A DNA stretch of 64,000 nt, from the IMG/VR virus record IMGVR_UViG_3300029258_004576; one strand, 5' to 3'. The notes under the pieces were generated by a model. It was given only the letters and a program-made list of their open reading frames with translations. It did no database searches and was not told the origin of the DNA. The stretch comes from a virus. Positions 21,275-63,297 of the stretch are shown here, piece after piece; the stretch's first letter is position 1, and every line of letters starts with the position of its first letter. Position numbers and translations under genes: made by a program.

Positions 21275-22177
21275 TTAGTAGTTTCCCCACAAACCTGCTG
21301 GATCACCGCTGAACCTTTCCCATTGAAATGTTACTTCAGTGGGACCGGAGCCTATCACAACCGTTCTATCCAACATGGTATCACGAAGTAATCCATTTAT
21401 TCCCGTTGGAGGAGCACCCGAAGAAGCGGTAGTCGTCGTAACTGCGGTCGAGGTGCTTCTCATCCCCCAATAAAATTGAAATTTACTAGAATAAGTATAG
21501 TTAGCTGAAGTAGCATATCTCGCAATCGCATCAAGATAAAGATAGCTTGTATTAGTCGTATCATAAATTGAAAAATGCTCTTTGTTCTTCCTATATGTAC
21601 TATACAAAGGCGAATAATTGTTAATCTCATAACCAGATGGTACCACCGTGTGAATACCCTCTGTCATGCCGCACCACGATTCAGCAGGTTCCATCCCTGA
21701 ACTAATTTGCACTGTCAAACGAGGTGGATAGCCTCTACCTTCTTTAATCGAACAGAACATCGTCAGCCTGATTTCCCAATGCCAATCGTAAGTTTTACCT
21801 GTTTCCCCCCTGTACTCCAAATACAAATCATTATTACCAACGCCCTGCTTGAACGAAGCTTCGCACACCGGAGTAGCTGGTCCTGAGATCAGGGTAACGT
21901 TTGTTGCTCCTATTTGATCGAAATTATTTCGAGCTGTCCAATCCTCTTTTGGTTTGCCCCAATCATATACTGACTCCAATTGCCAACAATATGAATCATC
22001 CAAATCGTCTGGGTTGTTGGCCAAAACACGAACCGATGCCCTGACAACTCCTGGACTGAACAACCCACTGAGCGGATCTCCCCACACGTCCATGTCTAAC
22101 TTTGAACTTTGTGAAAAACCATTAGTAGTTTGAATAGCCCTGGTTGTTACATATTCAAAAACGCTTTTATCCTGCAT
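21275..22177 (-). CDS. Hypothetical fibre-associated protein
   Basis: 300 aa beta-rich ORF with an RBS, lying between fibre genes. Confidence 0.55.
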   Translation of the reverse strand: MQDKSVFEYVTTRAIQTTNGFSQSSKLDMDVWGDPLSGLFSPGVVRASVRVLANNPDDLDDSYCWQLESVYDWGKPKEDWTARNNFDQIGATNVTLISGPATPVCEASFKQGVGNNDLYLEYRGETGKTYDWHWEIRLTMFCSIKEGRGYPPRLTVQISSGMEPAESWCGMTEGIHTVVPSGYEINNYSPLYSTYRKNKEHFSIYDTTNTSYLYLDAIARYATSANYTYSSKFQFYWGMRSTSTAVTTTTASSGAPPTGINGLLRDTMLDRTVVIGSGPTEVTFQWERFSGDPAGLWGNY

Positions 22178-22188
22178 CAGAAGTCTCC

Positions 22189-23832
22189 TTACAGATAGGA
22201 CGCATTTAACAATTGAGCACGAAAAGCACCCTGGAAACCTACTACCTTATCGGCGGCTAATGTATGCGTTCTTCCTATAATCGTGAACGTTTCATAATCG
22301 TCATCTGTTTCAAAAAGAATATGCCAATCCTTTGTAAGAGTCTCCCCTTCTTGACAAACAGTTGTGACCTTTGTTTCCAGCATCACTATGTGCCCCTGAT
22401 CGTTATAGAATGTGAAACTAATATCCCACACCTTTATTTTGGGCTCACTATATGTCTCACCAGACTGAATCGCATTTATTCTCGCTGTCCCCGACAAAAG
22501 ACAACCCCGTGGCATCACAAAACCACCATCATATTGCGTCCCCTCGGGAGAAAGATGAGTTGACGAAGAACTATTCGGAACTATTCCAAAAAGAGTGCAA
22601 CTGAAAATATCCTGAGCTTGGCCTCTGACGTTATCGATCTTTTTTAAACTGTTAACGAAAACACCAGGCCATGTTTTCGTGGTAGCTTCCCTATCGTATT
22701 CGTCGAGCACTGCCTGAAGCGTCACCGCAGAAACATCTATATTTCCGCCAAAAACAGTCTTACCAGCATTAACAAATTGCTCAGGAAGATTCCCCAACTC
22801 TATTTTCTTCTTATTGTTCGAATCCGCACTATCTTCGATAATCATCAAGTCTGCGTTTACAGGTGTCGCTTTCGCCGCTATCGCATTTATTTCACCAGCG
22901 ACGTTGTCATGAATCGCATCTGCGTCTGTACCTAAAAGGTTTCCAACCTGTACCTTCTTCTTGGCATTCGAAGCAGCACTATCCTCGATTAAAACCAGAT
23001 CTGCACTGACGGGTATTGCTTTTTCTGCAACTGCGTTTATCTCACCATCAACGTTGTCGTGGATAGCATCTGTGTCTGTACTCGGAAGGTTTCCAACCTG
23101 TACCTTCTTCTTGGCATTCGAAGCAGCACTATCCTCGATTAAAACCAGATCTGCACTGACGGGTATTGCTTTTTCTGCAACTGCGTTTATCTCACCATCA
23201 ACGTTGTCGTGGATAGCATCTGCATCTGTACCTAAAAGATTTCCAACCTGTACCTTCTTCTTGGCATTTGCCGCTGCGCTGTCTTCGATTAAAACCAGAT
23301 CTGCACTGACGGGTGTCGCCTTTTCAGTAATCGCATTTATCTCACCATTCACATTGTCGTGAATCGCATCTTCATCTGTGCCAGTAGAGACGTCATCAAC
23401 TTTCTGAAAAAAAACATTCATCTTCTCTTCGCTACCCCTGGCACCATCGTAAGGAAATTGCGAATTATCATGTTTTACTTCGTTCAATGCAGGTAAACAA
23501 TATCCGGTTTTTTCTAAAGGTACTCCAAAGAACCATGTCGTCCTAGACTCTGAAATAGTCCCTTCATTCACCGTCAACCTGATCAGATAACTCCCTCTTG
23601 TGTTTATCTCAAAATCGCAAGTATGAGTCGTGTCGTTGTTAATCGTAACAGACGCACCGAACGGCATACTGACCATCTCCCACAAGTAGGTCGTCTCAGC
23701 CTTGTTCAAAGCTTCGCATTCAACTTTTTCACTCGCGACCGAATACAGATCAATGTCTCGCCTCGCACGATCCCACTCTGCATACGGAGTACCTGGAGGC
23801 TGGTTGATACGAAAAGTTGAAAGAGTTGACAT
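22189..23832 (-). CDS. Fibre protein with a PKD/Ig-like N-terminus and four ~50-aa repeats
   Basis: TYLWEMVSMP...GSYLIRLTV (PKD-like); same DAIHDNV repeat as 17426..20128. Confidence 0.7.
   Translation of the reverse strand: MSTLSTFRINQPPGTPYAEWDRARRDIDLYSVASEKVECEALNKAETTYLWEMVSMPFGASVTINNDTTHTCDFEINTRGSYLIRLTVNEGTISESRTTWFFGVPLEKTGYCLPALNEVKHDNSQFPYDGARGSEEKMNVFFQKVDDVSTGTDEDAIHDNVNGEINAITEKATPVSADLVLIEDSAAANAKKKVQVGNLLGTDADAIHDNVDGEINAVAEKAIPVSADLVLIEDSAASNAKKKVQVGNLPSTDTDAIHDNVDGEINAVAEKAIPVSADLVLIEDSAASNAKKKVQVGNLLGTDADAIHDNVAGEINAIAAKATPVNADLMIIEDSADSNNKKKIELGNLPEQFVNAGKTVFGGNIDVSAVTLQAVLDEYDREATTKTWPGVFVNSLKKIDNVRGQAQDIFSCTLFGIVPNSSSSTHLSPEGTQYDGGFVMPRGCLLSGTARINAIQSGETYSEPKIKVWDISFTFYNDQGHIVMLETKVTTVCQEGETLTKDWHILFETDDDYETFTIIGRTHTLAADKVVGFQGAFRAQLLNASYL
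22785..23370 (-). repeat. Coding tandem repeat, 4 units of ~150 bp
   Basis: Same repeat family as 18380..19888. Confidence 0.9.
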
Positions 23833-45304: not shown

Positions 45305-45802
45305 CTACCCCAACTTCCTTGCCGGACGTTTTGTTTTTGTCGAAATACGCGTGATCTTCGTTACATAATGATCAGCAACATATTTCGACAACCAATCCCT
45401 CGCAACCTTCTTCACCTCGCGCACCGTCTTGGCATAAGCACTAAACATGTTTTTCTGTGAATTCTGACGATCAAAAACTACCAACGATATTGGACTTCCC
45501 TTTGGCGCAAAAGCACTACCAAAGTGAGAATAAAAATTGATGAAAATATCTTGTTCTTTTCCATCACGATGAACTAACCGGATAACACTCCACTGCTCGC
45601 CAGCATTTTTTCCTTTGGTCCAAGTTAAAATTTTTGAAACAGCTGATTTTACATCAGATATATGGTGTGTTTTCCTATCTCTGTAATCTTGACGTCTGGA
45701 ATGAAACGTACGCCCAACAGCTTTGGACAACAGCGGTATATCAATATCCATCGATTTTCCAGCTTCGGATAAATACTCGCGTTTCCTCAAGTTAACCATC
45801 AC
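45305..45802 (-). CDS. Putative internal head cargo protein with LRxRxYLxE leader
   Basis: Starts MVNLRKREYLSE-A. Confidence 0.7.
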   Translation of the reverse strand: MMVNLRKREYLSEAGKSMDIDIPLLSKAVGRTFHSRRQDYRDRKTHHISDVKSAVSKILTWTKGKNAGEQWSVIRLVHRDGKEQDIFINFYSHFGSAFAPKGSPISLVVFDRQNSQKNMFSAYAKTVREVKKVARDWLSKYVADHYVTKITRISTKTKRPARKLG

Positions 45803-45822
45803 ACCTCCCTTATCAACAACGA

Positions 45823-46101
45823 CTAATACGCCCTGTATTTCATAATCAAATCTACAATTTTCCCAGAAAAAGCTTCGGTATTCATGAGTCTTTCAATATT
45901 AGCCAAAACCAAACTACTCGTGCTCATATTTACATTGTTGGCCAATAATGCTCTACGCATTCCACCTCTCGCAGCAACAAGAAGCATATTAGCAACAGCT
46001 TCAACACGATCCTCTGTATCAGCATCCGGAGATAAATTAACTTGATACTGTTTGATCCCGCCAGATTCTTCCAGTTTATTTCCCCAAATCGATTTACTCA
46101 T
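45823..46101 (-). CDS. Small orphan in the cargo cluster
   Basis: MSKSIWGNKLEE-S: L-x-E within the first 12 residues. Confidence 0.55.
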   Translation of the reverse strand: MSKSIWGNKLEESGGIKQYQVNLSPDADTEDRVEAVANMLLVAARGGMRRALLANNVNMSTSSLVLANIERLMNTEAFSGKIVDLIMKYRAY

Positions 46102-46109
46102 AGTATCTC

Positions 46110-46616
46110 CTAACCGGCTCCCATAGCCTTGTTTTTGAGCTGCTGCTGACGTTGTGCCTGTCTCTTCTGGATGCCCATAATGTAATTGTAAGCCTTCTCC
46201 TTCTTTTTGAGAACACTGTTAGGCTCACTTGTATGCTTCCTGTTTCGCTTCTTGCCCTTGCCGGTCAAGCTGAAACCACCACTGGGCTGACCTTGAGCAT
46301 ACTTGTGCTTCTTCAACATATACTGAGCAATCAACTGACCGCCCTTTGCAGCACCACGAAAACTCGACCCATCCTTCCTCAATTTTTGAAAAATAGCCCT
46401 GACTGCATGTTTGTAAAACACACTCTGCTTGGAAGGACGAGGTGTATGAGCGGCCACCGTCTGACGTCTGTTACGCTGTGCCTTCTGGTAAGGAGTCAAC
46501 TTCGACTTTCGCGCTTCTTCCAGATACTCCACCTCAACCAGCTCGTTCGTCAAGAACTCCAACATGGCCAGCGATTCAGTAAGCGAAAATCTCATCCCAC
46601 TACTACCTCCGATCAT
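46110..46616 (-). CDS. Basic orphan with acidic propeptide
   Basis: VEVEYLEE-ARKSK followed by a highly basic domain; similar to 55015..55440 (KH.Y/F...T.KGK). Confidence 0.65.
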   Translation of the reverse strand: MIGGSSGMRFSLTESLAMLEFLTNELVEVEYLEEARKSKLTPYQKAQRNRRQTVAAHTPRPSKQSVFYKHAVRAIFQKLRKDGSSFRGAAKGGQLIAQYMLKKHKYAQGQPSGGFSLTGKGKKRNRKHTSEPNSVLKKKEKAYNYIMGIQKRQAQRQQQLKNKAMGAG

Positions 46617-47355
46617 TCAACTCACGCATGACCCATTTGGTTATAAGCCTGTCACCCGCCGTGGCACCAAACAGCTTTTCTACTTTGTCGTTTTTCCCAT
46701 CTTTGCCAATTATAATCTGGACATGCTCTCGTGTAGCGCCAGTTCTAGAATTAGGCTTAACCTTGTGATCCATTTTTATAACAAAAGGACCCACCCCTTT
46801 CATCTCTCCAGCCATCTCGATACTACCGTCTTTTTTCAAAACCTTGGACAATACCGAATACACCTTCTTAGCCATCCGACCCTCGATGTAGTCAAACATC
46901 TCCTTCGCATACTTCCAACGATCCGCTCCCCACTCCATCTCGTGCTTCCATGTAGACATGTTCAACTCGAACAAACTCTTCTCCCCAAAAGAAACATCAT
47001 CAATATCACTCCCTGTTTCCACCACATATCCACGATCACGCAAGGAGACACTCTCAGCAACCGTATGAGCATCGTAACCATACCAATGCCCAACTATCCA
47101 AGGATCTACCTTTATACGTACATCCCAACCCTTGTTTATCTCACGCCGTTGTCTGGGTGTAAGATCGTTCAGGAACTGAGTAGCAGGTCCACCCTCTTGG
47201 AAAAACACATTCAAATCACTGCCACCACCATTCTCCCTGCGTACATCAGAAAATGCCTTTGCATATTTCTTACTCACTGGAGAAGCGATAATATTTCCCA
47301 TGGCATCTGTTTTGATGTCGACATTGATTTTCCTTGGCATCCTCATCGGCTTCAC
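46603..47355 (-). CDS. Two-module cargo protein with an internal leader motif
   Basis: Internal VAE-SVSLRDRGYVVE-T at 47017..47043 separates two segments. Confidence 0.65.
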   Translation of the reverse strand: MKPMRMPRKINVDIKTDAMGNIIASPVSKKYAKAFSDVRRENGGGSDLNVFFQEGGPATQFLNDLTPRQRREINKGWDVRIKVDPWIVGHWYGYDAHTVAESVSLRDRGYVVETGSDIDDVSFGEKSLFELNMSTWKHEMEWGADRWKYAKEMFDYIEGRMAKKVYSVLSKVLKKDGSIEMAGEMKGVGPFVIKMDHKVKPNSRTGATREHVQIIIGKDGKNDKVEKLFGATAGDRLITKWVMRELNDRR

Positions 47356-47363
47356 CTCTCCCT

Positions 47364-47969
47364 CTAGTAATACTTATTAGATCTTTCGTTCTTACCTTTG
47401 GGAGTTACTGAAGTAGCCCCAGCTTTGTTCATCTTCATGTATCCCCTTTTAACCAAATTCAAGATCTCATCCTTTGTAACTCGATGACGCTCGAAAAGTT
47501 CCTTCTTGTAGAAAGACTTGTAACAAGCCATCGCAAGGATCTCCCTCTCTCGCTCTGTGACGTCATTCCCACCTGGCAACAAAGGAGCTAACGAATCAGG
47601 ATGAACGTAGATAGATGCAAACACCCCCCTGCCACCTACCTCCCCTGTGATGATTGCACCATTGGCAGCAATTCTCACAGGCTTACGCTGGTGATCTACC
47701 GGCTTTTTCTCAAACGGATTCGGCCCTCCCCATGAACCATACTGAATATCCGACATCTGACCCGTTTTTAGATTTACAGCCATCGCAAACCCACGACTTC
47801 CTTCGAACGATGGTGGACCAATAGTCGTCTCTGTTGCAGAGTAAACACGCACATCTCTTCGTCTGTAGCCAACTTTTTTCAACGCCTTCTGCAAGGCACT
47901 GGGCAACTCATTGAGCCCAACATGAATCTCCTTCGATTCTGTGATGTATCCTCGATGCCTGAGTGTCAT
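47364..47969 (-). CDS. Putative internal head cargo protein; C-terminal winged-helix-like region
   Basis: Starts MTLRHRGYITE-S after an AGGAGG RBS. Confidence 0.7.
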   Translation of the reverse strand: MTLRHRGYITESKEIHVGLNELPSALQKALKKVGYRRRDVRVYSATETTIGPPSFEGSRGFAMAVNLKTGQMSDIQYGSWGGPNPFEKKPVDHQRKPVRIAANGAIITGEVGGRGVFASIYVHPDSLAPLLPGGNDVTEREREILAMACYKSFYKKELFERHRVTKDEILNLVKRGYMKMNKAGATSVTPKGKNERSNKYY

Positions 47970-47978
47970 AATTGCCTC

Positions 47979-48416
47979 CTATATCTTACTGATTCTCGTT
48001 GGTTTAAATTTTATAGCTTTCTTGAGCAACCACTTTTTAGCAACTGCCTTCGCCTGTCTCTCAGTGTGAAATATACCAAGGTCTTCACCAGAATTTGGAA
48101 CACCAGGGTTGTAAACATCTATTACAAAATTTGGCTTATTGGCAACAGGCTCAATATCCTTCTCTCTGATCTGAAGAATATAATCCACACTATTATAATC
48201 CCGTGGGCCTTTTCGGCCCTCTCGCTCCCAATGAATAGCCGCTGTCAAATTAAAAAAAGCATCTCCGTAAGAACTCCACACCAATGCCTTTGATATGGCC
48301 CTCTCTACGTCTGATACCCAAGCTCCTTTTGTCTTCCTGGCCACTCCAGAATCAAAACTGCCAACAATTATCGGCTTCCCGCCCTCGACCAAGTAACCAC
48401 GTTTCCTGAGTCTCAT
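47979..48416 (-). CDS. Putative internal head cargo protein
   Basis: Starts MRLRKRGYLVE-G. Confidence 0.7.
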   Translation of the reverse strand: MRLRKRGYLVEGGKPIIVGSFDSGVARKTKGAWVSDVERAISKALVWSSYGDAFFNLTAAIHWEREGRKGPRDYNSVDYILQIREKDIEPVANKPNFVIDVYNPGVPNSGEDLGIFHTERQAKAVAKKWLLKKAIKFKPTRISKI

Positions 48417-48431
48417 GTGACCTCTTTTTAA

Positions 48432-51400
48432 TCAGAGCCTGATATACAACCCCGTCTCTTTTTCAAACATATCCTTGAGCATGTCAGCATACACCATGGT
48501 GTATCTCTTCAACTTCTTGAAACCCTTTTTGCCAACTCGACCAAACTGCACATCGTACAAGTCCATGGAAGTGAGAGTAATTTTTACGTAGTTCGGTTTA
48601 CTCCTCAACCTGTTGGGGAATTGAAAAACCAAAGACTTTCCATTGTCGTCAGAGTAAATATGCTTCGCACCGATCATCATTCTCAAACGATTACCACCAC
48701 CCAACTGTTGCAAGATGATGTCAGCCGGAGCCTCTGTCAGATACTCACGCTGTCGAAACCTGGACCCATCCGACTCTTCCATTTCTGCATCACAAGAATC
48801 CCCTAACAAACTGTCTCGAAGCTTTTTAATCACATTCACTTCTTTCAGCTCGACGTCTTCATGTTTCTCATACTTCTCTATCCATTTATATTTTGACTTT
48901 TTATATTTTGTCCCTGCAATATATTGCATCTCCCCATTCCGACGATGATCCCTCACTCGATAATAAACCTTTCCATCCAAACCATCACTGGTTCCAACAT
49001 ACTCATACTTCCCGCTCTCAAGCCCAGTTTTTAACTCTTTATCAGAAACAGGAGAAATCGATTCCTCCAGCTCAACGTCTTCTATATCCTCGGAAAAAAC
49101 AGCCTTAGCACCAACCATCTTGGCAACCTTCTTAGCTGTCTCTTTTGTAAAATTCCAATAAACAGGATGATGCATAACGTTGCTACCTTTTTTAGATAAC
49201 TCACCAGTCATAATATCAATAGCACGTCCACCTACCAGAAACCGTACAGGAATCCCGTTTTTAACAGTTTCTTTTCGCAACTCAACAACCTGACTTGAAG
49301 TAAGTTTCCCCTCATCCAACTCGACGCTTTCTTCACGTTTTGCCAGGTTAGCCTGATCCCAACCTCGAAGCCATACTGACAACAGAGCTTTGGCTCCAGC
49401 ACCAGGCTTCATACCCTTGATCATCCCCATCAAGGTTTTGTCTCTCGCTGGTATCCTTTTCTTACCACTTAAAAAAGCAGCTTTGCCCAGACCTAAAATT
49501 TCTCTTTCGTTATCACTTAATTTAATCTCATCCAGCTCGACGTCTTCATAAGCATGGGCCTTGGCATATGCCAGAAGCTCTTTTTTGATCATGCCCTTAA
49601 CCACTTTTTCAGCACCTGAAGGAGCATTGTCGGATTTCATATTGAAAGCTACGACATCATGAACAGTGTCATAAATAACTTTGCCAGTAGCCAGTTGCTC
49701 TTTGGTTTTCAAACTGTCAACTTTCACATCGTAAGTCACTGTCTTGAACATCTGTCTGCCCACAGTCCCCGTGACCACTATATCCTTGGCACTGCCTGTC
49801 CCTTTTATTTTGAACTTCTTTGGGAAAACAGGACGTTCTATGCCACCCTCGTGCATCTCGATGTCTTCAGTTGATTTAAACACTTTCGGCAACCTTCCTT
49901 TGTTGTCTTGAATAACCTTTTTCACCTTTTTGAAATAATTCCCAAAATGCTTGACGATCTGATCGGGAGTACCCTTCTTTTTCCTCCAACCAAACTTCAC
50001 ACTACCAAAAGCATAGTGCGATCCAGGATCGGGCTTCACCATCAGCTTGCCCCCCGTCGCAATATTTGCCTCCAATTTATCAGCCAATGTGTCGTCTTCG
50101 TTTACCCCGTAAATTATAATCTTATGTAACGCAGGATCGTTCATCATGATCCCGTTCGACCATTTGCTTTTGTCTTTCTCTAATGCCGTAACAAGGTAGA
50201 TATGCTTACGACCCAAACTTGATCTCACCTCACACACCAACACATACCCAGGCGGCATACTCTTTTCAATCTCTGTCTTGATTCGCTTGGCCAGCTTCTG
50301 CGCTTCTCCAGATGGATTACTTGACTTCGAATGACCCAGTATGTTGTACACACCAGCCTCATCTAGCTCGACATCTTCATCAGCTTTTTCACCAACCGGG
50401 ATACCAAGAGGTCCCTTGCCTCTTCCACGAGCGAGCCCTTTACCTTTGCCCTTTGACTTTGTTTTCTTTCCAGGGGTATCACAACCCTCGCTCTTGTCGT
50501 CCAGCTCGATGTTATCGCCAGCTTGGCCACCTAGTAATTCATTCCGCATCTCTCGTATCAAACTGGACGTCCCCATGCCTGTCTCCTTTTTGTCAACATC
50601 CTCCAGATACTTACCTGTTTTCAGTTTACTGATAATAGTATTCGCTTTGTTCGCAGTCATGCTGCCTCGGACACTCCGCAAAGTATTCAATCTCTCTTTG
50701 TACTCCGCTTCATTTTCAGAACGTATCAACATCATAACAAGACCATCGGACTGCCCAAAGGTGATCAGCGATGCCAACATCTTTGGTCCCAACTTGTCTA
50801 TCCAAGGAATTTGCTTCAACAAGTTTACAAGCTGTGGACGACTCATACCAATGTGCTCATGCCCCAAAGGTTTCCCCTCATCCAGCTCGACGTCTTCTCT
50901 CAACTTCTTTGCTTTTGCCAATGCTGATTTCAAAACTGGCAACGCATAATGAGCAGTAGCACCTATCTCATTAAGCCTGTTCATTGCGTGACCACCACAC
51001 TTTTCACATGTCACCCAAGTTCCCTGACCAAAACCACCTGCCTCTGCTTTCCATCCTTGGATAGACTTACAATGACAAGGTTTTTGTTTCCCCTCATCCA
51101 GCTCGACGTCTTCTCTCAGTTTTTTAATAGCTGCATCAATCGCACTCTGCTTATCTGTGCCAAGAGAAATAATCTTCAGCTTTTTCCAACTACCCGATTC
51201 GCTGTCTTTCTCGTCCCTTACATTCTCCTTGTCATAGTCCCCAAACACAACTTCCCAAGGAGACGTCTTGGATGCCTTGCCAGCCAGCACGTAATACCTT
51301 TTGCCTTCGGTGATCTCCACATCCTCATCAAAGCCCATGAGAGCCTTGACATCCTTCTCCACAGCCTTTTTCGTACGACCGAATGTCGTCTCCCATGTCC

Positions 51401-51614
51401 CATCTTTTCTGTACACCTTGGCCATCCACGGCCCTCTTCCGGGGAGATCTGTCTTCTCTATTTCGTACTTCACGTACCGCTTTTTCGCCTCGTCCAACTC
51501 GACATCTTCTGTCGCAGTTTTGTTAGGATCAACCCCCTCGGTAAGTGCCTGCATATCTTTGCCCAAAATGACATCGCGCATTTGTGATAATTCAGTGGAC
51601 TGCATCAACCTCAT
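48432..51614 (-). CDS. Putative protease-processed polyprotein of internal head proteins (~11 modules)
   Basis: Ten EDVE[LIM]xE-type linkers ending at residues 42, 103, 174, 246, 419, 589, 696, 768, 851 and 925, plus FRQREYLTE at 961. Confidence 0.75.
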   Translation of the reverse strand: MRLMQSTELSQMRDVILGKDMQALTEGVDPNKTATEDVELDEAKKRYVKYEIEKTDLPGRGPWMAKVYRKDGTWETTFGRTKKAVEKDVKALMGFDEDVEITEGKRYYVLAGKASKTSPWEVVFGDYDKENVRDEKDSESGSWKKLKIISLGTDKQSAIDAAIKKLREDVELDEGKQKPCHCKSIQGWKAEAGGFGQGTWVTCEKCGGHAMNRLNEIGATAHYALPVLKSALAKAKKLREDVELDEGKPLGHEHIGMSRPQLVNLLKQIPWIDKLGPKMLASLITFGQSDGLVMMLIRSENEAEYKERLNTLRSVRGSMTANKANTIISKLKTGKYLEDVDKKETGMGTSSLIREMRNELLGGQAGDNIELDDKSEGCDTPGKKTKSKGKGKGLARGRGKGPLGIPVGEKADEDVELDEAGVYNILGHSKSSNPSGEAQKLAKRIKTEIEKSMPPGYVLVCEVRSSLGRKHIYLVTALEKDKSKWSNGIMMNDPALHKIIIYGVNEDDTLADKLEANIATGGKLMVKPDPGSHYAFGSVKFGWRKKKGTPDQIVKHFGNYFKKVKKVIQDNKGRLPKVFKSTEDIEMHEGGIERPVFPKKFKIKGTGSAKDIVVTGTVGRQMFKTVTYDVKVDSLKTKEQLATGKVIYDTVHDVVAFNMKSDNAPSGAEKVVKGMIKKELLAYAKAHAYEDVELDEIKLSDNEREILGLGKAAFLSGKKRIPARDKTLMGMIKGMKPGAGAKALLSVWLRGWDQANLAKREESVELDEGKLTSSQVVELRKETVKNGIPVRFLVGGRAIDIMTGELSKKGSNVMHHPVYWNFTKETAKKVAKMVGAKAVFSEDIEDVELEESISPVSDKELKTGLESGKYEYVGTSDGLDGKVYYRVRDHRRNGEMQYIAGTKYKKSKYKWIEKYEKHEDVELKEVNVIKKLRDSLLGDSCDAEMEESDGSRFRQREYLTEAPADIILQQLGGGNRLRMMIGAKHIYSDDNGKSLVFQFPNRLRSKPNYVKITLTSMDLYDVQFGRVGKKGFKKLKRYTMVYADMLKDMFEKETGLYIRL

Positions 51615-51660
51615 TTTTCAAATCTCCTTTGTTCGGACATCAGCACTATCCGATTGATTC

Positions 51661-52374
51661 CTATCTCTTTATGAAATACCGAACCTTGTCATTTTTTCTA
51701 GTTAACGCAAACACTCCCTTGATAGACTTCCACAGACCCTCCTCCTGATTTTCATCAGGATACCTGTGACCATTAAGTCTTTTTAAAACTTCCTCAAACA
51801 TGTTCGCTTTCTCATATCCAAATTTATCCTGAACATCTCGGTACGAACGCATACTAAATGCCTTCTTCCAATCAGCCCCGGTCAGTTTGTGATAGCCCGA
51901 ATCATAATAACCAAGTGTAAGCCAGTATCTCTCAAGAATAGACAACTCACCCTTCCCCAGTTGGCCCCACTTCAACTTAACCCAAACCTCAACAGACGGT
52001 CCAAATCTACCCTTAATAACCGACCCTAAACCACGACCACCATAAATACTAAAAGATGTTTTTTCGTAGGGAATACTAGGATTAGAAACAGCAGGTTCAG
52101 CCCGTAAGAAAATCTTCTCCGCCTTGAACGGTTTAAGACTGTTAGGATCCAGTGCATATCGTACCAAATGTTTACGAGCAACAAGTTGAGGATCAAACCA
52201 ATTACGAGGATCTGATTCATCCAACCAGCTTGTCGTTACAAGTGCTACTTTCCCATCCCAAAAAGAAAATCTAAGACCACTCGGATCTGACACCTCGGTT
52301 TTTGGCAAAAACTTAGGCAAAACCTTACCGGTTGCCTTCTCCTCGGTCAGATACCTACGTCGTCTCAAGTTCAT
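51661..52374 (-). CDS. Putative internal head cargo protein
   Basis: Starts MNLRRRRYLTE-E. Confidence 0.7.
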   Translation of the reverse strand: MNLRRRRYLTEEKATGKVLPKFLPKTEVSDPSGLRFSFWDGKVALVTTSWLDESDPRNWFDPQLVARKHLVRYALDPNSLKPFKAEKIFLRAEPAVSNPSIPYEKTSFSIYGGRGLGSVIKGRFGPSVEVWVKLKWGQLGKGELSILERYWLTLGYYDSGYHKLTGADWKKAFSMRSYRDVQDKFGYEKANMFEEVLKRLNGHRYPDENQEEGLWKSIKGVFALTRKNDKVRYFIKR

Positions 52375-52790
52375 TTTTCCGATCTCCTTTTCATCTCAGC
52401 CTTCAATGGATAGAAAAACTTTCGCAACCATTTGAGCACCGTCTTGTCAACGTTCGCCAACGTCACTTTCCACGACTGCCCATCTGTATAGCCATCTCGG
52501 CTCCACAGATTCGTCTTGACAACCACCTCTCCACCACCCTGTCCCCAAACTTCCATCTCCCAGTCAAACATCTGCCTACCAGAACTCGGCCAAGATCCAG
52601 TCAACGTCCACCCGTTCGGCCTCTTATCCTGGCTGACAAGAGACCGCTCAAACTCTGGAGTAGAATGGAAAAACTTCTCCAGCACGAGCCCCACCCTGTC
52701 ATGCTTACCTCGGCCATCTTTGCCAGGGGTGATAAAAGATCTCCTGGCCTCTCGAAGTACGCAAATAGAACTGGTGAGTGAAAACGTCAC
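52371..52790 (-). CDS. Orphan in the cargo cluster
   Basis: VLRE-A near the N-terminus; GTG start 1 nt after the upstream stop. Confidence 0.55.
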   Translation of the reverse strand: MTFSLTSSICVLREARRSFITPGKDGRGKHDRVGLVLEKFFHSTPEFERSLVSQDKRPNGWTLTGSWPSSGRQMFDWEMEVWGQGGGEVVVKTNLWSRDGYTDGQSWKVTLANVDKTVLKWLRKFFYPLKAEMKRRSEK

Positions 52791-52791
52791 T

Positions 52792-53910
52792 TTACATTCT
52801 GCTCGACAATTCTTTCACCATCTTACCAATGGCAAGCTTTGGACTTGCACTACCCGTAATCGACTCTCGTACCACAATCTCCCCTTTTGCATTTGGAACT
52901 CTCATTTTGAGAACAAAACGAATCTCATCACCATAATGATCCACATGAAATTGCCACGATATTGACAAGTCAGACGAGTTTGTTCCTTCCCCTACTACAA
53001 GAACATGACCATGCCCCATATAGTTTTTCCCAAGCACATCAGCATATGCCTTCTTGGGTATCAACCTGATAAACTCTTCCGCAATGCTCTTATTATAAGG
53101 CGCAATCGCCTTCTCCAACAAAGAACCCTTTGCCCCACCGCCTCCATGCGTCGTCCAGGATTTTCCCTCTTCAAAATACCTACGCTGTCTCAATTTACTC
53201 ATGTCAACTTCTTCTTTCTTAAGCTTCCCCCTCCACGCTTGAGATGGCTTCGTCATGAAATACTGTTTCAATATAATGTCCGCCATATCTCGGCCACTTA
53301 CCCTCAGCAATATGGCGTAAAACCACAACGGAGCATTCTCTGGAATCCGACGAATACCCTTCGCTAAACGAGGTTCTACTTTGCCAACATTTCGAAGCCA
53401 CATCTGAAATGCTTTTTTGGGATTCTTGGCTATTACGTCCTGTGCATCAGCCATGTTGTCCTTGCCCCAAATTATCGGCAACTTATCCCTCGGAATTTTA
53501 TTAATAATCTCCCTCTGACTCTTGAATAAAAATTGCTCAGGATTTTCTATACCTGTCTCCTGCTTGAACCAGTTCAAAATATTGGAGCTTATCTTGAAAG
53601 CTCCAGGTCGAGACGTCCTATCCTCGCCACCCATCGCCAAGCCAGCTGCTACCTTCTGACGCTCGCCCAAGTATTCTCTTCTTCTCAGCTTACTCATTCC
53701 AAATCCCTCGCTTTCTGGTAATTTTGGAACCTTGGCCATGGAGTAGGGTAACTTCGATCTCATGGGCTTACGAGGTTTGATTTTTTTTCGCTGCATCAAC
53801 CGGCTGACCTTCAATCTTTTCTTCGTCAAAGGATCCATTCCAAACGAATCAACATCGTTGTCATCACCAGCTAACTGCTCTACCAACTCAACTATCGATT
53901 CGTCGATCAT
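52792..53910 (-). CDS. Three-module cargo protein with two internal leaders
   Basis: Internal MSKLRRREYLGE-R (ATG 53697) and MSKLRQRRYFEE-G (ATG 53202). Confidence 0.7.
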   Translation of the reverse strand: MIDESIVELVEQLAGDDNDVDSFGMDPLTKKRLKVSRLMQRKKIKPRKPMRSKLPYSMAKVPKLPESEGFGMSKLRRREYLGERQKVAAGLAMGGEDRTSRPGAFKISSNILNWFKQETGIENPEQFLFKSQREIINKIPRDKLPIIWGKDNMADAQDVIAKNPKKAFQMWLRNVGKVEPRLAKGIRRIPENAPLWFYAILLRVSGRDMADIILKQYFMTKPSQAWRGKLKKEEVDMSKLRQRRYFEEGKSWTTHGGGGAKGSLLEKAIAPYNKSIAEEFIRLIPKKAYADVLGKNYMGHGHVLVVGEGTNSSDLSISWQFHVDHYGDEIRFVLKMRVPNAKGEIVVRESITGSASPKLAIGKMVKELSSRM

Positions 53911-59030: not shown

Positions 59031-60524
59031 CTATGGCAAGTTGGTTACCGTGATGATACCGAAGAACTTGTTGTTCACAAGCTTCTTCGCATACCTCGTC
59101 CTCATGCCCTTACGAATCGTGAAGTCTGCTGGGTCGAGGAAAGCAGCCGTCATCTCCAGTGGCACGTACGGCGCATATACCAGACCCGAATCGGTGAAGA
59201 GTGATCCCTTCAATCCAACCAGGATTTTCCCAGACGGGAAGTAAGGATCGATGATCACAGTCCACTTGTTCTGCAAGTAGCCCATGGGATACACACCGTA
59301 CCCAGTTGGAGCCTGCGGGAGAGCAAATGCTTGACGTCCTGTCACGCCCTTACCCTGCGGGATATTTGGAAGCTGGTCAAACACCCTCACGAGGTCGCCA
59401 TGGGTTGCCAACGCACCAAAGATGGGTTGGACACTGGGTCCAATAACCAGGAAGTTTCCTGGCCCTCTGTGGGTCGCTGTGTTGATGCCTCCGGAAACCT
59501 TCTCGATCACGGTCATGATGTTGCGGAAATGATCCGCCTGATTGCGACCAGGGGGTACCGCTGCATCGAAGGTGTCGGTGTTGGTAGTCCCAGAAGCATA
59601 CGCCCGGTTGATCAGCTCGCGATCAATCCCCAGCGCGATCTCAGACGCCACTCCTTGGGTCAGCTCGGGCTCAATATCCATATTGAGCACTGCCCGCATG
59701 TCGTCAGCAGCTTCACTACTCCACATCACCTTGAGCTTACGGCTGTAAGCTTTGATGGCTTCCAGTTGGATGTCGATGTTGACTTGAGGTACGTTCGCAG
59801 CCACTCCCTCCATCGAGTAGTAGTAGTTGGCGATCACGGTGGTTACATCCTCGTCAAAGGTGATGTCATAAACACCAGTTGCCAAAGTGATCGTCGAAGG
59901 TGCCCCGATGTCACCAGCCAACGTGCCAGAACCGTCTGCGTCGTAGATCCTCTTCTCAGATCCATCGCTCACAGCTGTCGCCAGGAATTCTATCCCTACC
60001 TGACCCAGACCGTACGCCTTGACCGCGCTCCAATCCGTGGTGCCAGTGAAGTTGTCCCCAGGGCCAGCACCAATCGTCTCAGCTGCGACGTACTCCGAGG
60101 AGTAGTTCGGATCGAAGTTGTCGATCATGTCGTCGCCAGCGGTGATGGTACCCTTGGTGGTGCCATACTTGTAATCCCAATAGAAGATACCTCCAATGGG
60201 AGAATTCATCGGCTGAATCGAGAACAGACCGTTTGCAATCAAGTTCGACCACACCTTGCGGATGACGGGGAATACAAACTTGACGAGATCGGGGATGTTC
60301 GAAGCGAGTGTGCTCTCAGAGAGATACTTCTGCTTCAACGTCCCCAGATGATTCATCTGGTTCTCGTACAAACACGCCATGCATCGACGGGTCCAGCTGT
60401 CGTCAATCTCCTCCAACATTCCAGCCCATTTGGCCTGGAGCGCCACGTTGACATCTTCGTCCAGGATCGTTCCCACGCTGTTCTCTTTTGCATCGCTGTT
60501 CAAAAAATCTCTTGCTTCATTCAT
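59031..60524 (-). CDS. gp23: Major capsid protein (T4 gp23 family)
   Basis: FPVIRKV...SIQPMNSPIGGIFYWDY, SRKLKVMWSSEAADD, EIALGIDRE, GLVYAPYVPL...KGMRTRY; predicted propeptide ends YLSE70. Confidence 0.97.
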   Translation of the reverse strand: MNEARDFLNSDAKENSVGTILDEDVNVALQAKWAGMLEEIDDSWTRRCMACLYENQMNHLGTLKQKYLSESTLASNIPDLVKFVFPVIRKVWSNLIANGLFSIQPMNSPIGGIFYWDYKYGTTKGTITAGDDMIDNFDPNYSSEYVAAETIGAGPGDNFTGTTDWSAVKAYGLGQVGIEFLATAVSDGSEKRIYDADGSGTLAGDIGAPSTITLATGVYDITFDEDVTTVIANYYYSMEGVAANVPQVNIDIQLEAIKAYSRKLKVMWSSEAADDMRAVLNMDIEPELTQGVASEIALGIDRELINRAYASGTTNTDTFDAAVPPGRNQADHFRNIMTVIEKVSGGINTATHRGPGNFLVIGPSVQPIFGALATHGDLVRVFDQLPNIPQGKGVTGRQAFALPQAPTGYGVYPMGYLQNKWTVIIDPYFPSGKILVGLKGSLFTDSGLVYAPYVPLEMTAAFLDPADFTIRKGMRTRYAKKLVNNKFFGIITVTNLP

Positions 60525-60581: not shown

Positions 60582-62126
60582 TTAATTCCCAGTTTTCCTC
60601 TCAGCAGAAATTCCTGACCGTTTCTGCAACTCCGACATCGGAACGCCCATGACCGTGACGTCTTCTTCTATCGACACCCTTAGATCATCGTCACTATCCA
60701 AATGCCTTGGCCTGCTACTGATTATCTGACTTCGAATTTCCTCGAACTCTCTCGATGGAGGGTTGTCAGCCTTGAACGATTCGACCAGCTTGTCCACACC
60801 CTCTTTGTTGCTCGGTTGCACCGAATCAATGTGCTCGCGCAACCTCGAAGCCTGTGGACTACCTGATATTTTCCGCTCAATGTAAGCCCGAATACCAAAT
60901 TGCTTGCTAATGGCCAAAGCTTTATCTCGTTGTTCCGTAACGAGATTAACCTTCTTCTCCAACTGAGCAATCCTGTCTTCAAACTCCTCTTTGACATCGT
61001 CTCCCTCGGCAAGAGCAGTAGATATTTCTTCTACCCTGCCTGCAAGATCGTCAAGTGTCTCAAAGTCTGTGACATCACCCAACATCTCGATAATCTGATC
61101 AGCTCGCTCATTGTCCCTAAGCTCTCGCTCCAGGTGCAGATGATAGCCAAATTCCTTGGCAATAACAGACAGCTCCTCAGCTTCCTGCCTTACCTCAGCT
61201 ATCTCCTCGTCCTGCTCGGCAATCTTGCGCTCTAATTCCTGATTGTGAGCCTTGAGTTTTGTCACTTCGTGATTCGTGTCTTCCGACAAAATGAAGGGAG
61301 TCACGATCCTCTTGATCTCCTCCAAGGCAAGGGATGAGCCTGCCACTTCGGGATCCTCTAGCAATTGGCCACGAGCCACTTCAACAGCTTCCTCCCGGAT
61401 GGATTCTCCCTCTGACCGAAGCCGTTCTTCAAATTCCTCGCGCAATGCCTCCCGCGCATGGGTCCGTGCATCTGACTCAATCTCTTTCGTCAGTTCCTCT
61501 ACCAGCTCGGGGTGTTCTTCTTTTAATTTTCCCAGATCCATCATCTCTGTATTCTCCTTATGCTCCACCACAAAATCAGGGTGGGCACCAGCGTTTGCCG
61601 GATCAGCTACGATGTCCCAGGTGACCAACTTGTAGTCCTCCTGGACGACATCATTCCCTTTGTTGTCAGTAGCCGTTGTTCCAAAACCTCGACTACTCAC
61701 ACCCAATTTGCCACCTGCTTTCGCAATCGCAAGGGCCTGATCTCCGTTGACGGTGCCAGGGATGAACTCAATCACACCTTTTATTTCACCGTCCTCTGCG
61801 ATAGCCGCCTCGGTCACAAAATGACTCACACGAGCAAGTTTTGTCTTCCCGTCTCCGGGATGATCCAACTCACCAAACACCTTGCGACCTTGCATATCCT
61901 CACTCAAACGATTGATTTCTCTCACCATGAGTTTACGAGGATAAAGACGTTTATTCGCTGTAGCCTGATCCGTTAGCCCTAACCTGCCCTTGAGGTATGG
62001 ACGCTTGCCTTCGCCTTCACCTTCATGCAAATCTTCGGGTGAAAACTCCAACACAACAACGTCTTCAAGGAGATCCTTCCCCTCGGGGATTTCAACTTCT
62101 TGGATCTGGAGTACTTTTCTCTTCAT
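60582..62126 (-). CDS. gp21: Prohead maturation protease (T4 gp21 family) fused to a C-terminal scaffold
   Basis: N.RLYP, GELDHP (His), GVSSRGFG (Ser), WDIVADPA (Asp), then ~320 aa of acidic coiled coil. Confidence 0.92.
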   Translation of the reverse strand: MKRKVLQIQEVEIPEGKDLLEDVVVLEFSPEDLHEGEGEGKRPYLKGRLGLTDQATANKRLYPRKLMVREINRLSEDMQGRKVFGELDHPGDGKTKLARVSHFVTEAAIAEDGEIKGVIEFIPGTVNGDQALAIAKAGGKLGVSSRGFGTTATDNKGNDVVQEDYKLVTWDIVADPANAGAHPDFVVEHKENTEMMDLGKLKEEHPELVEELTKEIESDARTHAREALREEFEERLRSEGESIREEAVEVARGQLLEDPEVAGSSLALEEIKRIVTPFILSEDTNHEVTKLKAHNQELERKIAEQDEEIAEVRQEAEELSVIAKEFGYHLHLERELRDNERADQIIEMLGDVTDFETLDDLAGRVEEISTALAEGDDVKEEFEDRIAQLEKKVNLVTEQRDKALAISKQFGIRAYIERKISGSPQASRLREHIDSVQPSNKEGVDKLVESFKADNPPSREFEEIRSQIISSRPRHLDSDDDLRVSIEEDVTVMGVPMSELQKRSGISAERKTGN

Positions 62127-62151: not shown

Positions 62152-63297
62152 CTAGCCAGCTGCCCGCTTGCCAGCCCGCTTGCCAGTACTCTTCCTCTTC
62201 GCTTTGCCCTTGGCATACTTCAGAGCCTGACCAGGTGCTACCTTGCCACCCTTGACTTGAGCCAAATACCCAAGAAGAGCTTCCTTATTCTTTACATCTT
62301 TTCGCATCGCTATCTGCTTCTTTGCAGCACCTTTGCCATGCGCCATTGCCCAAGCTGACTTGCCAGCTTTGGTGACCGTACCCTTTGGATTCAGCATCTT
62401 ACGCTTTTTCAAAGGTGGTCGACGCTCTTGAAGATACATGTTTTCCCGTATCCCCTCAGCCGCCTCGTGAAAAGGATTGCCTACACCTTCCTCGAAGTCT
62501 TCCTCTTCCTCTTCATCCTCGAAGTCGTCTTCATCCTCGAAGTCGTCCTCTTCTTCCTCTTCGTCGTCCTCTTCGAGCAGACCATACTCCTCCCACAGAT
62601 CTCCGACATGCTCCATGGCGTCAGCCAATGTGGCTTCCAACATTTCGTCTTCGTCCATATCGAGCACTCCGCCCATGTCTTCCATCTGCTTGAGAATCGC
62701 TTCTGCATTCAAAGAGAGTTCAAGAATCTTAGAAGCCGCTTCATTGTCCTCATCCATCACCTTTATCGCTGCCATCTCACCCAGGTCAGCAATATGGTTG
62801 AAAGCTTCCACGAACTCGTCAAAACGAGATACAGGATCTCGCTCGATGGATTCTGCCAGCACACCCAGCTCGTCCATCAGCCCCTCGTGCATCGAAGAAA
62901 ACCCGTCGACGTCCACATCAGACACCACACGACGAGTTCTCGCACCACCCTTGGACATACTGGCCAGTTTTTTCTGACGACGTTTGTAAGCACCTGTCTT
63001 GCGCTTCTGCTTCATCGCCCTCTTGATTTTTTGCTTATTCCGTTTGTAAGCCTGTCTGGCCTTCTGTCTCGACTTCGCAGTCCCCTTCTTGAGCCGAACA
63101 ACCCGCTCGTCCAGCTCTTCAGAATCCTCGTCGTCTACCATGTCGCTCAGGTAGACATCTCCCTCGAAGTCATCTTCCGATTCCTCCTCCTCAAAACCCG
63201 CCTCTTCCTGTTCACATACCACGTCCAGTGACTCACGGATTTCCTTGGAAGAAAGACCCATGCTTTGGAAGTCTTCTTCGAGTCGTCGTACTCTCAT
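62152..63297 (-). CDS. Prohead core protein (gp67/gp68-like acidic and basic blocks)
   Basis: Alternating poly-E/D and K/R blocks; ELDE-R and YLQE-R precede the basic blocks. Confidence 0.6.
   Translation of the reverse strand: MRVRRLEEDFQSMGLSSKEIRESLDVVCEQEEAGFEEEESEDDFEGDVYLSDMVDDEDSEELDERVVRLKKGTAKSRQKARQAYKRNKQKIKRAMKQKRKTGAYKRRQKKLASMSKGGARTRRVVSDVDVDGFSSMHEGLMDELGVLAESIERDPVSRFDEFVEAFNHIADLGEMAAIKVMDEDNEAASKILELSLNAEAILKQMEDMGGVLDMDEDEMLEATLADAMEHVGDLWEEYGLLEEDDEEEEEDDFEDEDDFEDEEEEEDFEEGVGNPFHEAAEGIRENMYLQERRPPLKKRKMLNPKGTVTKAGKSAWAMAHGKGAAKKQIAMRKDVKNKEALLGYLAQVKGGKVAPGQALKYAKGKAKRKSTGKRAGKRAAG

Follow-up and report, generated by a model that had tools for sequence, protein, structure and literature searches.

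The stretch analysed here, referred to as the window, comprises 64 kb of a 142-kb virus record (IMG/VR record IMGVR_UViG_3300029258_004576) from an uncultured, marine, T4-like phage. All window genes lie on the minus strand, among them genes for a prohead protease of the S77 family and a gp23-type major capsid protein. The subject of this analysis is the open reading frame (ORF) P0001 on the minus strand (48432-51614), which encodes a protein of 1060 aa and carries the Shine-Dalgarno sequence AAAGGAG 7 nt ahead of its ATG. This ORF is almost certainly a modular polyprotein. The T4 late promoter TATAAATA was considered and rejected, as it is not enriched and no copy lies upstream of the polyprotein gene. 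The same gene occurs in five public runs from four studies (X1-X5) at 98-99% of sampled words; the runs are labelled as sediment (2018) and seawater (2021) metagenomes, whose independence as samples may or may not hold, and X1 and X3 show zero differing letters over the polyprotein gene. These runs consist of DNA reads, with the phage at a depth of about 100x.

The linker array of the polyprotein

The linker pattern [ED][EDS][IV]E[LIM]x[ED] is present in 10 copies in the polyprotein, ending at E42, E103, E174, E246, E419, E589, E696, E768, E851 and E925, exactly where an earlier note on this DNA, made from the sequence alone, had placed ten copies of EDVE[L/I/M]xE. The two further junction-like strings listed in that note, DNIELDD (residues 367-373) and FRQREYLTE961, are also found. 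When the polyprotein is shuffled (20,000 shuffles), the pattern matches a mean of 0.009 times and at most once. It is missing from the other 68 ORFs of the window and, across the 142-kb genome, from the 884 remaining stop-to-stop frames that reach 60 aa. The residue following the linker Glu is, in order, A, G, G, G, A, G, I, G, S and V, and an A follows E961.

The intervals delimited by the linkers measure 36-173 aa and, as the earlier note had proposed, share no similarity with each other (BLASTP, E<1e-4). Its description of them as basic applies to most of the intervals (pI 8.2-9.9), but three are acidic, namely residues 1-42 (pI 4.2), 104-174 (pI 5.5) and 926-961 (pI 4.7). The chain opens with MRLMQSTELSQMRDVILGKDMQALTE, a terminus that lacks an LRxRxYLxE leader and carries an MRDxLLG motif; the N-terminal acidic piece (residues 1-42) may be a propeptide or a targeting piece. 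The DNIELDD junction, with Asp at P1, is perhaps not cut, and Asp at this position blocked processing of the T4 capsid targeting sequence (CTS) (PMC9026906). With 10-11 modules plus two acidic peptides, a count of about 11 products is reasonable. A 2A-like or internal-initiation reading of the array was rejected: the modules have neither start codons nor ribosome-binding sites, and the protein holds no NPGP-type motif.

Modules as independent, exchangeable units

The segments between the linkers, named A to L from the N-terminus onward (Table 1), are real, independent and exchangeable modules. Metagenomic polyproteins other than this one, at least 10 in number, contain them in shuffled order. 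Looking for long relatives by word matching gave further linker-bearing proteins of 500-1660 aa, P0003, P0005, P0006, P0007, P0008 and P0013, to which P0014 and P0028 were later added. Stand-alone homologues of modules B and C did not turn up in word-based searching. In an all-against-all BLAST of the linker-cut segments from 8 polyproteins, the alignments cover each piece from its first to its last residue and stop at the linkers, and common modules differ in order (B..F..H in the window versus H..F..B in P0003). An exhaustive profile-free search returns 3255 representative proteins at E<=1e-3, with 588 at E<=1e-10.

Module B has homologues only within polyproteins (P0005, P0028, P0039, P0014 and P0003). 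Module D (residues 247-373) closes with MRNELLG...DNIELDD and is followed by module E (residues 374-419), a basic Gly/Arg/Lys piece, C-x-TPG...GRGKGPLGIP, present in 1-3 copies in relatives. Module F is mostly stand-alone, at 140-180 aa, the domain being N-terminal in 49 of 64 representative hits, and the 153-aa P0017 begins exactly at the start of the module. Module H finds matches in P0003, P0005, P0006 and P0013. Module I stands alone at 90-140 aa, and both I and L are also embedded in proteins of up to 2427 aa; among the distant proteins that share module L, P0010 carries LPD11 and P0011 carries RelA_SpoT. That the linker separates domains found independently elsewhere, a point the earlier note had proposed to check, is borne out by F, H, I and L, which are known as stand-alone phage proteins of matching size. 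PHROG profiles of 151, 61 and 98 positions cover F, H and L almost fully, and module L stops where its stand-alone relatives, in Vibrio phage KVP40 and Sinorhizobium phage phiN3, have their natural C-terminus.

Folded alone with AF2 (50-54 homologues), modules L and F each form a compact alpha/beta structure, with pLDDT 90.2 and pTM 0.82 for L and pLDDT 89.0 and pTM 0.83 for F, in which low confidence is confined to the ends adjoining the linkers. The structural neighbours of both are uncharacterised stand-alone proteins of the same size, and a profile comparison finds the two modules unrelated to each other. Folding covered L and F; in the full chain with 73 module fragments aligned, MAFFT misplaced most of them, so the chain was not folded. 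Because L and F fold alone and the modules are independent, a single integrated fold crossing the linkers, which the earlier note had named as a refuting outcome, is not supported. Pfam searches of the whole protein and of every module return no family that reaches threshold, and a search for function through Pfam, PHROGs, a PDB profile search, ESM Atlas, Foldseek against PDB and VIA-align yields uncharacterised families or matches with Z<7 only.

Junctions in protein and DNA

Across 59 linker copies from 11 proteins, the consensus reads E (56), D (50), V (53), E (51), L (53), x and E (56). Relative to the presumed cut, Leu occupies P3 in 53/59 and Glu occupies P1 in 56/59, P2 is unconstrained, and A or G occupies P1' in 44/59, often with K or R next. 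T4 gp21 cuts after Glu in L/I-x-E and wants a small P1' residue (PMC9026906). With Leu at P3, Glu at P1 and a small residue at P1', the linker fits what is expected of a T4-type prohead-protease site, and the L/I-x-E sequence pattern is present at 11 sites of the polyprotein.

A related ending is found on the surrounding genes. The leader L-R-x-R-x-Y-[LI]-x-E opens six neighbouring genes, is internal to two more and makes up the final junction of the polyprotein, ahead of module L; the E70 site of the capsid protein resembles it. In other phages this leader stands where the linker stands here: P0030 consists of the leader and module F, P0062 of a homologue of the window product at 46603-47355, the leader and module I, and P0020 of another piece, the leader and module L. 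In P0004 and P0015, MRELIERIASLKE replaces EDVELDE ahead of module F. Among distant homologues, [LIVM]-x-E precedes module L in 26/62 (13.8% background, p=5e-8), module I in 8/18 (15.4% background, p=0.003) and module F in 5/15 (13.1% background, p=0.04). At the level of sequence, evolution treats the linker junctions as equivalent to N-terminal leaders, and the junctions carry what a T4-type protease would need.

On a genome-wide view, L-R-x-R-x-Y-[LIVF]-x-E has 12 coding-strand copies, mostly directly after a start codon, including those in the genes at 21988-22320, 22317-22781 and 102511-103128 of the genome (G000:C1). Two leader-like copies lie within the 372-aa ORF at 52792-53910 and one within 46603-47355; these products look like smaller polyproteins with the leader as linker. 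In the large proteins of other phages (P0009-P0012, P0019, P0096, P0110 and others), modules I and L adjoin junctions of the form x-[KDE]-G-G (FAKGGE, MADGGE) or K-x-A-[SNGA]. Such alternative junctions may be dialects matched to other proteases.

Within the polyprotein, a second motif accompanies the junctions. The element (I/L)R-x-(M/L)R-D-E-L-L-G, or MRDxLLG, occurs three times in the window protein (residues 12-18, 356-362 and 932-938), and each copy is followed 8-20 residues on by [LM]-x-[ED]. It is also found at the N-termini of P0005, P0006 and P0008 and at the C-termini of P0005 and P0008, and it precedes every copy of the basic module C-K-T-P-G...G-R-G-L-A-x-G-K-G-R-G-P-L-G-I-P (CKTPG...GRGLARGRGKGPLGIP). 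A targeting helix and an alternative linker are both possible roles for MRDxLLG.

At the nucleotide level, 34 linkers from five polyprotein genes of five phages (the window, L002, L003, L007 and L008) were compared with the codon usage of the same genes elsewhere. The first four codons are biased: GAA in 29/34 at codon 1 (Fisher p 4e-8), GAC in 25/34 at codon 2 (p 4e-4), GTC in 31 of 33 Val codons at codon 3 (p 3e-16) and GAG in 32/34 at codon 4 (p 1e-4). The linker Leu is spelled TTG, CTG or CTA, and codons 6 and 7 follow the background (p 0.12 and 0.46). Since the Leu and final Glu codons vary at background frequency, L-x-E is under protein-level selection, and the first 12 nt of the linker, GAAGACGTCGAG (GAA GAC GTC GAG), are conserved as DNA across phages. 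With at most one mismatch, 8 of the 12 occurrences of GAAGACGTCGAG in the genome fall within the polyprotein gene. This nucleotide-level conservation and the MRDxLLG motif are new relative to the earlier note. Avoidance of GACGTC as the cause of the codon pattern was rejected, the hexamer being present in 85 genome copies.

Module C is flanked by 40-nt direct repeats (50870-50909 and 51086-51125) that are 93% identical and 216 nt apart, and public assembly graphs break exactly at these repeats. The sequence GAAGACGTCGAG is probably kept as DNA since linkers would serve as short homologies for the gain, loss and swap of modules. A strain differing by a module was not found, the public runs showing identical sequence. 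In run X6, linkers seem to carry joints and loose ends, but these belong to short low-depth contigs that share little beyond the linker and were not counted. In two public runs, the k-mer depth of the module C unitig is 6-8% below its flanks (97.7 versus 104-108 and 87.9 versus 92-96), which could reflect a minority without the module or a short-unitig effect.

Table 1. Positions of the polyprotein, its pieces, the junction motifs and the associated head genes in the window.
Feature	Position	Strand	Remarks
Polyprotein ORF P0001	48432..51614	-	1060 aa; Shine-Dalgarno AAAGGAG upstream
Acidic N-terminal piece, aa 1-42, pI 4.2	51489..51614	-	MRDVILG (51561-51581), LTE26, linker EDVELDE (51489-51509)
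Module A, aa 43-103	51306..51488	-	C-terminal linker EDVEITE (51306-51326); homologue not found
Module B, aa 104-174, W..VFGDYD	51093..51305	-	C-terminal linker EDVELDE (51093-51113)
Module C, aa 175-246, Cys-rich	50877..51092	-	C-terminal linker EDVELDE (50877-50897); homologue not found
Modules D and E, aa 247-419	50358..50876	-	C-terminal linker EDVELDE (50358-50378)
Module F, aa 420-589, W.NGIMMND	49848..50357	-	C-terminal linker EDIEMHE (49848-49868); phrog_21515
Module G, aa 590-696	49527..49847	-	C-terminal linker EDVELDE (49527-49547); partial match within P0005
Module H, aa 697-768	49311..49526	-	C-terminal linker ESVELDE (49311-49331); phrog_19203
Module I, aa 769-851	49062..49310	-	C-terminal linker EDVELEE (49062-49082); stand-alone and embedded homologues
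Module J, aa 852-925	48840..49061	-	C-terminal linker EDVELKE (48840-48860)
Acidic spacer K, aa 926-961	48732..48839	-	LRDSLLG (48801-48821); leader-type junction FRQREYLTE961 (48732-48758)
Module L, aa 962-1060, QQLGG..RMMIGAK	48435..48731	-	phrog_9437; AF2 pLDDT 90.2
MRDxLLG copies	51561-51581, 50529-50549, 48801-48821	-	IRxMRDELLG consensus in relatives
Leader island	45305..53910	-	Genes starting with or containing L-R-x-R-x-Y-[LI]-x-E
gp23-type major capsid protein	59031..60524	-	Pfam Gp23 2e-60; candidate site 60315-60338
Prohead protease with coiled-coil tail, 514 aa	60582..62126	-	S77 domain aa 34-194 = 61545-62027

Head genes, proposed processing and the alternatives

The gp21-like protease that the earlier note reported in the window is present, matching Pfam Peptidase_S77 at 6e-12; in the alignment to T4 gp21 (PDB 5JBL), GELDHP and SSRG fall at the His and Ser positions. 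Its position had been given as 60582..61600, which is wrong: the gene extends to 62126, and the part named is mostly the coiled-coil C-terminal half. Beyond the N-terminal ~200 residues, the rest of the protease is coiled coil. The N-terminus carries a conserved QEVEIPE followed by GK (62082-62102), which resembles the linker, has the consensus (I/L/V)QEV(E/Q)(I/V)PE then G(K/T) in relatives and lies where T4 gp21 has a candidate N-terminal site. The fusion of protease and scaffold-like coiled-coil tail, 514 aa here, reaches 920 aa in L003 (21636-24398); in T4, prohead protease and scaffold are separate genes. No other peptidase domain is found in the polyprotein or in ten scanned neighbour genes.

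The capsid protein is ~30% identical to that of the best isolate phages, which therefore places the phage in a distant T4-like lineage. Its candidate maturation site, L-K-x-K/R-x-L-S/T-E70 followed by S/A, is kept in 4 relatives. The full-length alignment to T4 gp23 starts at residue 82 and the N-terminal profile matched nothing, so that LYE54 and LSE70 are both candidates. In every relative with enough flanking DNA (L002, L003, L007 and the P0005 contig), the polyprotein gene shares a block with genes for a T4-type portal, an S77 protease and a Gp23 capsid protein. In the window and in L008 it is situated between the capsid and the neck/sheath genes, and in L002, L003 and L007 between an intein-bearing gene (possibly terminase) and the portal.

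Two further features of these head regions were observed. In the relatives, the portal and the large MJ0330_N gene (possibly terminase) upstream of the polyprotein contain inteins with HNH or LAGLIDADG (L002 6963-9989 and 14191-17004; L003 6894-9989 and 16582-19329; L007 4989-7814). In the window, a 381-aa protein (62152-63297, minus strand) alternates extreme acidic and basic blocks, contains ELDE-R and MYLQE-R sites and looks like the precursor of a core or internal protein.

In the reading favoured here, at somewhat better than even confidence and on sequence evidence, the ORF would encode a cargo polyprotein, expressed late, of a divergent T4-like myovirus, with ~10-11 unrelated small modules, mostly basic and each folding on its own, joined by the 7-residue acidic linker E-D-V-E-L-x-E followed by A/G. 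The precursor would enter the prohead, and there the S77 protease, encoded ~9 kb upstream, would cut behind the final Glu of every linker and behind YLTE961. The freed small basic proteins would remain associated with the DNA and accompany it into the host, in the manner of T4 internal proteins. That the S77 protease cuts the linkers within the prohead is likely; analogy with T4 makes it plausible, at distinctly lower confidence, that the products are ejected and act in the host.

Several points weigh against this reading. From the earlier proposal of a polyprotein cut into about 11 ejected proteins, the modular string, the S77-like linker and the count stand, but cleavage, packaging, ejection and any anti-defence role are all inferred. 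The N-terminus lacks the LRxRxYLxE leader of the neighbouring genes, which leaves the route of prohead targeting obscure. Seven conserved residues and fixed codons far exceed the known need of a gp21-type protease; something besides proteolysis must therefore contribute to the conservation, and proteolysis might in principle have no part in it. The stand-alone module L genes of KVP40 and phiN3 sit among small uncharacterised genes outside the head modules, and modules therefore need no capsid route. Searches gave no homologue for modules A, C and K, and those of B are confined to polyproteins. Fold searches with L and F yielded no function, the best PDB matches (Z 6.6-6.8) being in the noise range.

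In one alternative the protein is an uncut, polyvalent chain of beads on a string, packaged or cytoplasmic, and the linker is a recombination joint at the DNA level, perhaps also an acidic spacer, and not a protease site. In five phages the first four linker codons depart in a fixed way from the usage of their genes, and this, like the repeats flanking module C, agrees with it. There is also precedent for packaging without processing among polyvalent proteins, for instance the N4 virion RNA polymerase (PMC5512222); linker cleavage, moreover, is itself a deduction. A joint at the DNA level leaves unexplained why Leu at P3 and Glu at P1 are fixed while their codons vary, with P2 free and P1' A/G in 75%, all of which indicates a peptide signal. 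Nor does it account for the same modules in distant phages following unrelated sequences that still end in [LIVM]-x-E, or for a leader with the same ending standing in for the linker. An uncut chain is considered unlikely, although it is the strongest of the competing explanations.

Slightly less probable still is that the protein is cut but serves as an accessory core, scaffold or DNA-condensing protein, its pieces being mainly structural and charge-neutralising, like T4 core products, and not host effectors. The basic charge of most modules (pI 8.2-9.9), the Gly/Arg/Lys-rich module E, the location of the gene in the head-to-neck region and the dicing of T4 core proteins at many L/I-x-E sites (PMC9026906) are all compatible with such a role. 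The modules, however, are globular, unrelated and quickly shuffled among close relatives, and several have stand-alone homologues among small genes outside head modules, which is unexpected for a structural core. Cutting outside the capsid, by a host protease or an unrecognised phage protease, as a compact way of expressing many small late proteins from one message, is very improbable. It has no direct support and leans on prohead targeting being a prediction and on the N-terminus without the neighbours' leader, and it is opposed by the failure to find a second peptidase domain in the genes scanned, by the match of the linker to the S77-type rule and by the co-occurrence of polyprotein and S77 protease in every relative with enough flanking DNA.

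A combined version of prohead cleavage and recombination is put forward tentatively, as a possibility well short of even. In it the linker would be dual-coded: the peptide would be the cut site of the clade's prohead protease, and the DNA, GAAGACGTCGAG, would supply homology for module exchange within and between phages. This would amount to an integron-like shuffling of capsid-delivered proteins, in which other lineages would place the same modules behind junction dialects suited to the proteases they carry.

Among known systems, the T4 internal proteins (IPI, IPII, IPIII and Alt, whose CTS is removed by gp21) are closest to the proposed cargo polyprotein. Both have an S77 protease and a gp23-type capsid in the head module, small, mostly basic and poorly conserved cargo, and a junction of L/I-x-E followed by a small residue, and the genes neighbouring the polyprotein share a short leader that ends as the T4 CTS does. 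T4, however, uses separate genes with one N-terminal 10-residue signal, whereas ~11 cargos are fused here through a repeated internal 7-residue linker; the T4 CTS (MKTYQEFIAE) and the acidic linker are dissimilar, and for the polyprotein packaging is predicted. A T4 gp22-like scaffold, a long acidic coiled coil degraded to peptides, is a poor match, as most modules are basic and two are predicted to be compact alpha/beta.

The polyvalent proteins (Iyer, Burroughs, Anand, de Souza, Aravind 2017, PMC5512222) likewise combine many unrelated domains, lie near virion genes, have solo versions, are mosaic and are predicted to be delivered with the DNA. They have larger enzymatic domains, and their release is proposed to be by an embedded zincin-like metallopeptidase or assemblin-like domain, with no mention of repeated cis linkers (PMC5512222). 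The polyprotein agrees with their definition in having 2-15 unrelated domains with solo versions, modules B, E, F, H, I and L each showing a homologue distribution of its own, and in its virion and packaging gene context. It differs in that no signature domain (metallopeptidase, ADP-ribosyltransferase, SNF2, methylase or LPD families) and no Pfam family at threshold is found in it, and in that the ORF holds no embedded peptidase; here a uniform cis linker appears to be matched to a trans-acting prohead protease.

In phiKZ and SPN3US, the propeptides of head proteins are cleaved multiple times by the gp175 and gp245 proteases at S/A-x-E, and the proteins are ejected (PMC10052503, PMC9026906). 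Several protease motifs in one head protein, cut after Glu, resemble the motif array described here; there, however, the additional cuts break up a propeptide that is discarded, and a single mature protein remains, whereas each interval here is a separate folded module. Eukaryotic RNA virus polyproteins also yield many proteins from one translation product with repeated viral-protease sites, but their proteases and domains are unrelated, and cutting in this dsDNA phage would take place inside the procapsid. As the earlier note had surmised, a multi-cargo head polyprotein with a repeated linker is not described in the literature searched, and EDVELDE is likewise absent there in this sense.

Should prohead cleavage of the linkers be real, a single gene would supply the head with about ten different small proteins in fixed, equal amounts, ready at the moment of DNA entry. 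The T4 internal-protein concept, so far one of single tagged genes, would then widen to include a modular polyprotein. A large pool of small uncharacterised proteins, with thousands of representatives matching these modules, would then be candidate effectors of the first minute of infection, and anyone engineering phage heads with several cargo proteins would find in the linker a portable processing signal. The conservation of the linker at the nucleotide level leads to a testable idea of how phages may reshuffle their cargo sets.

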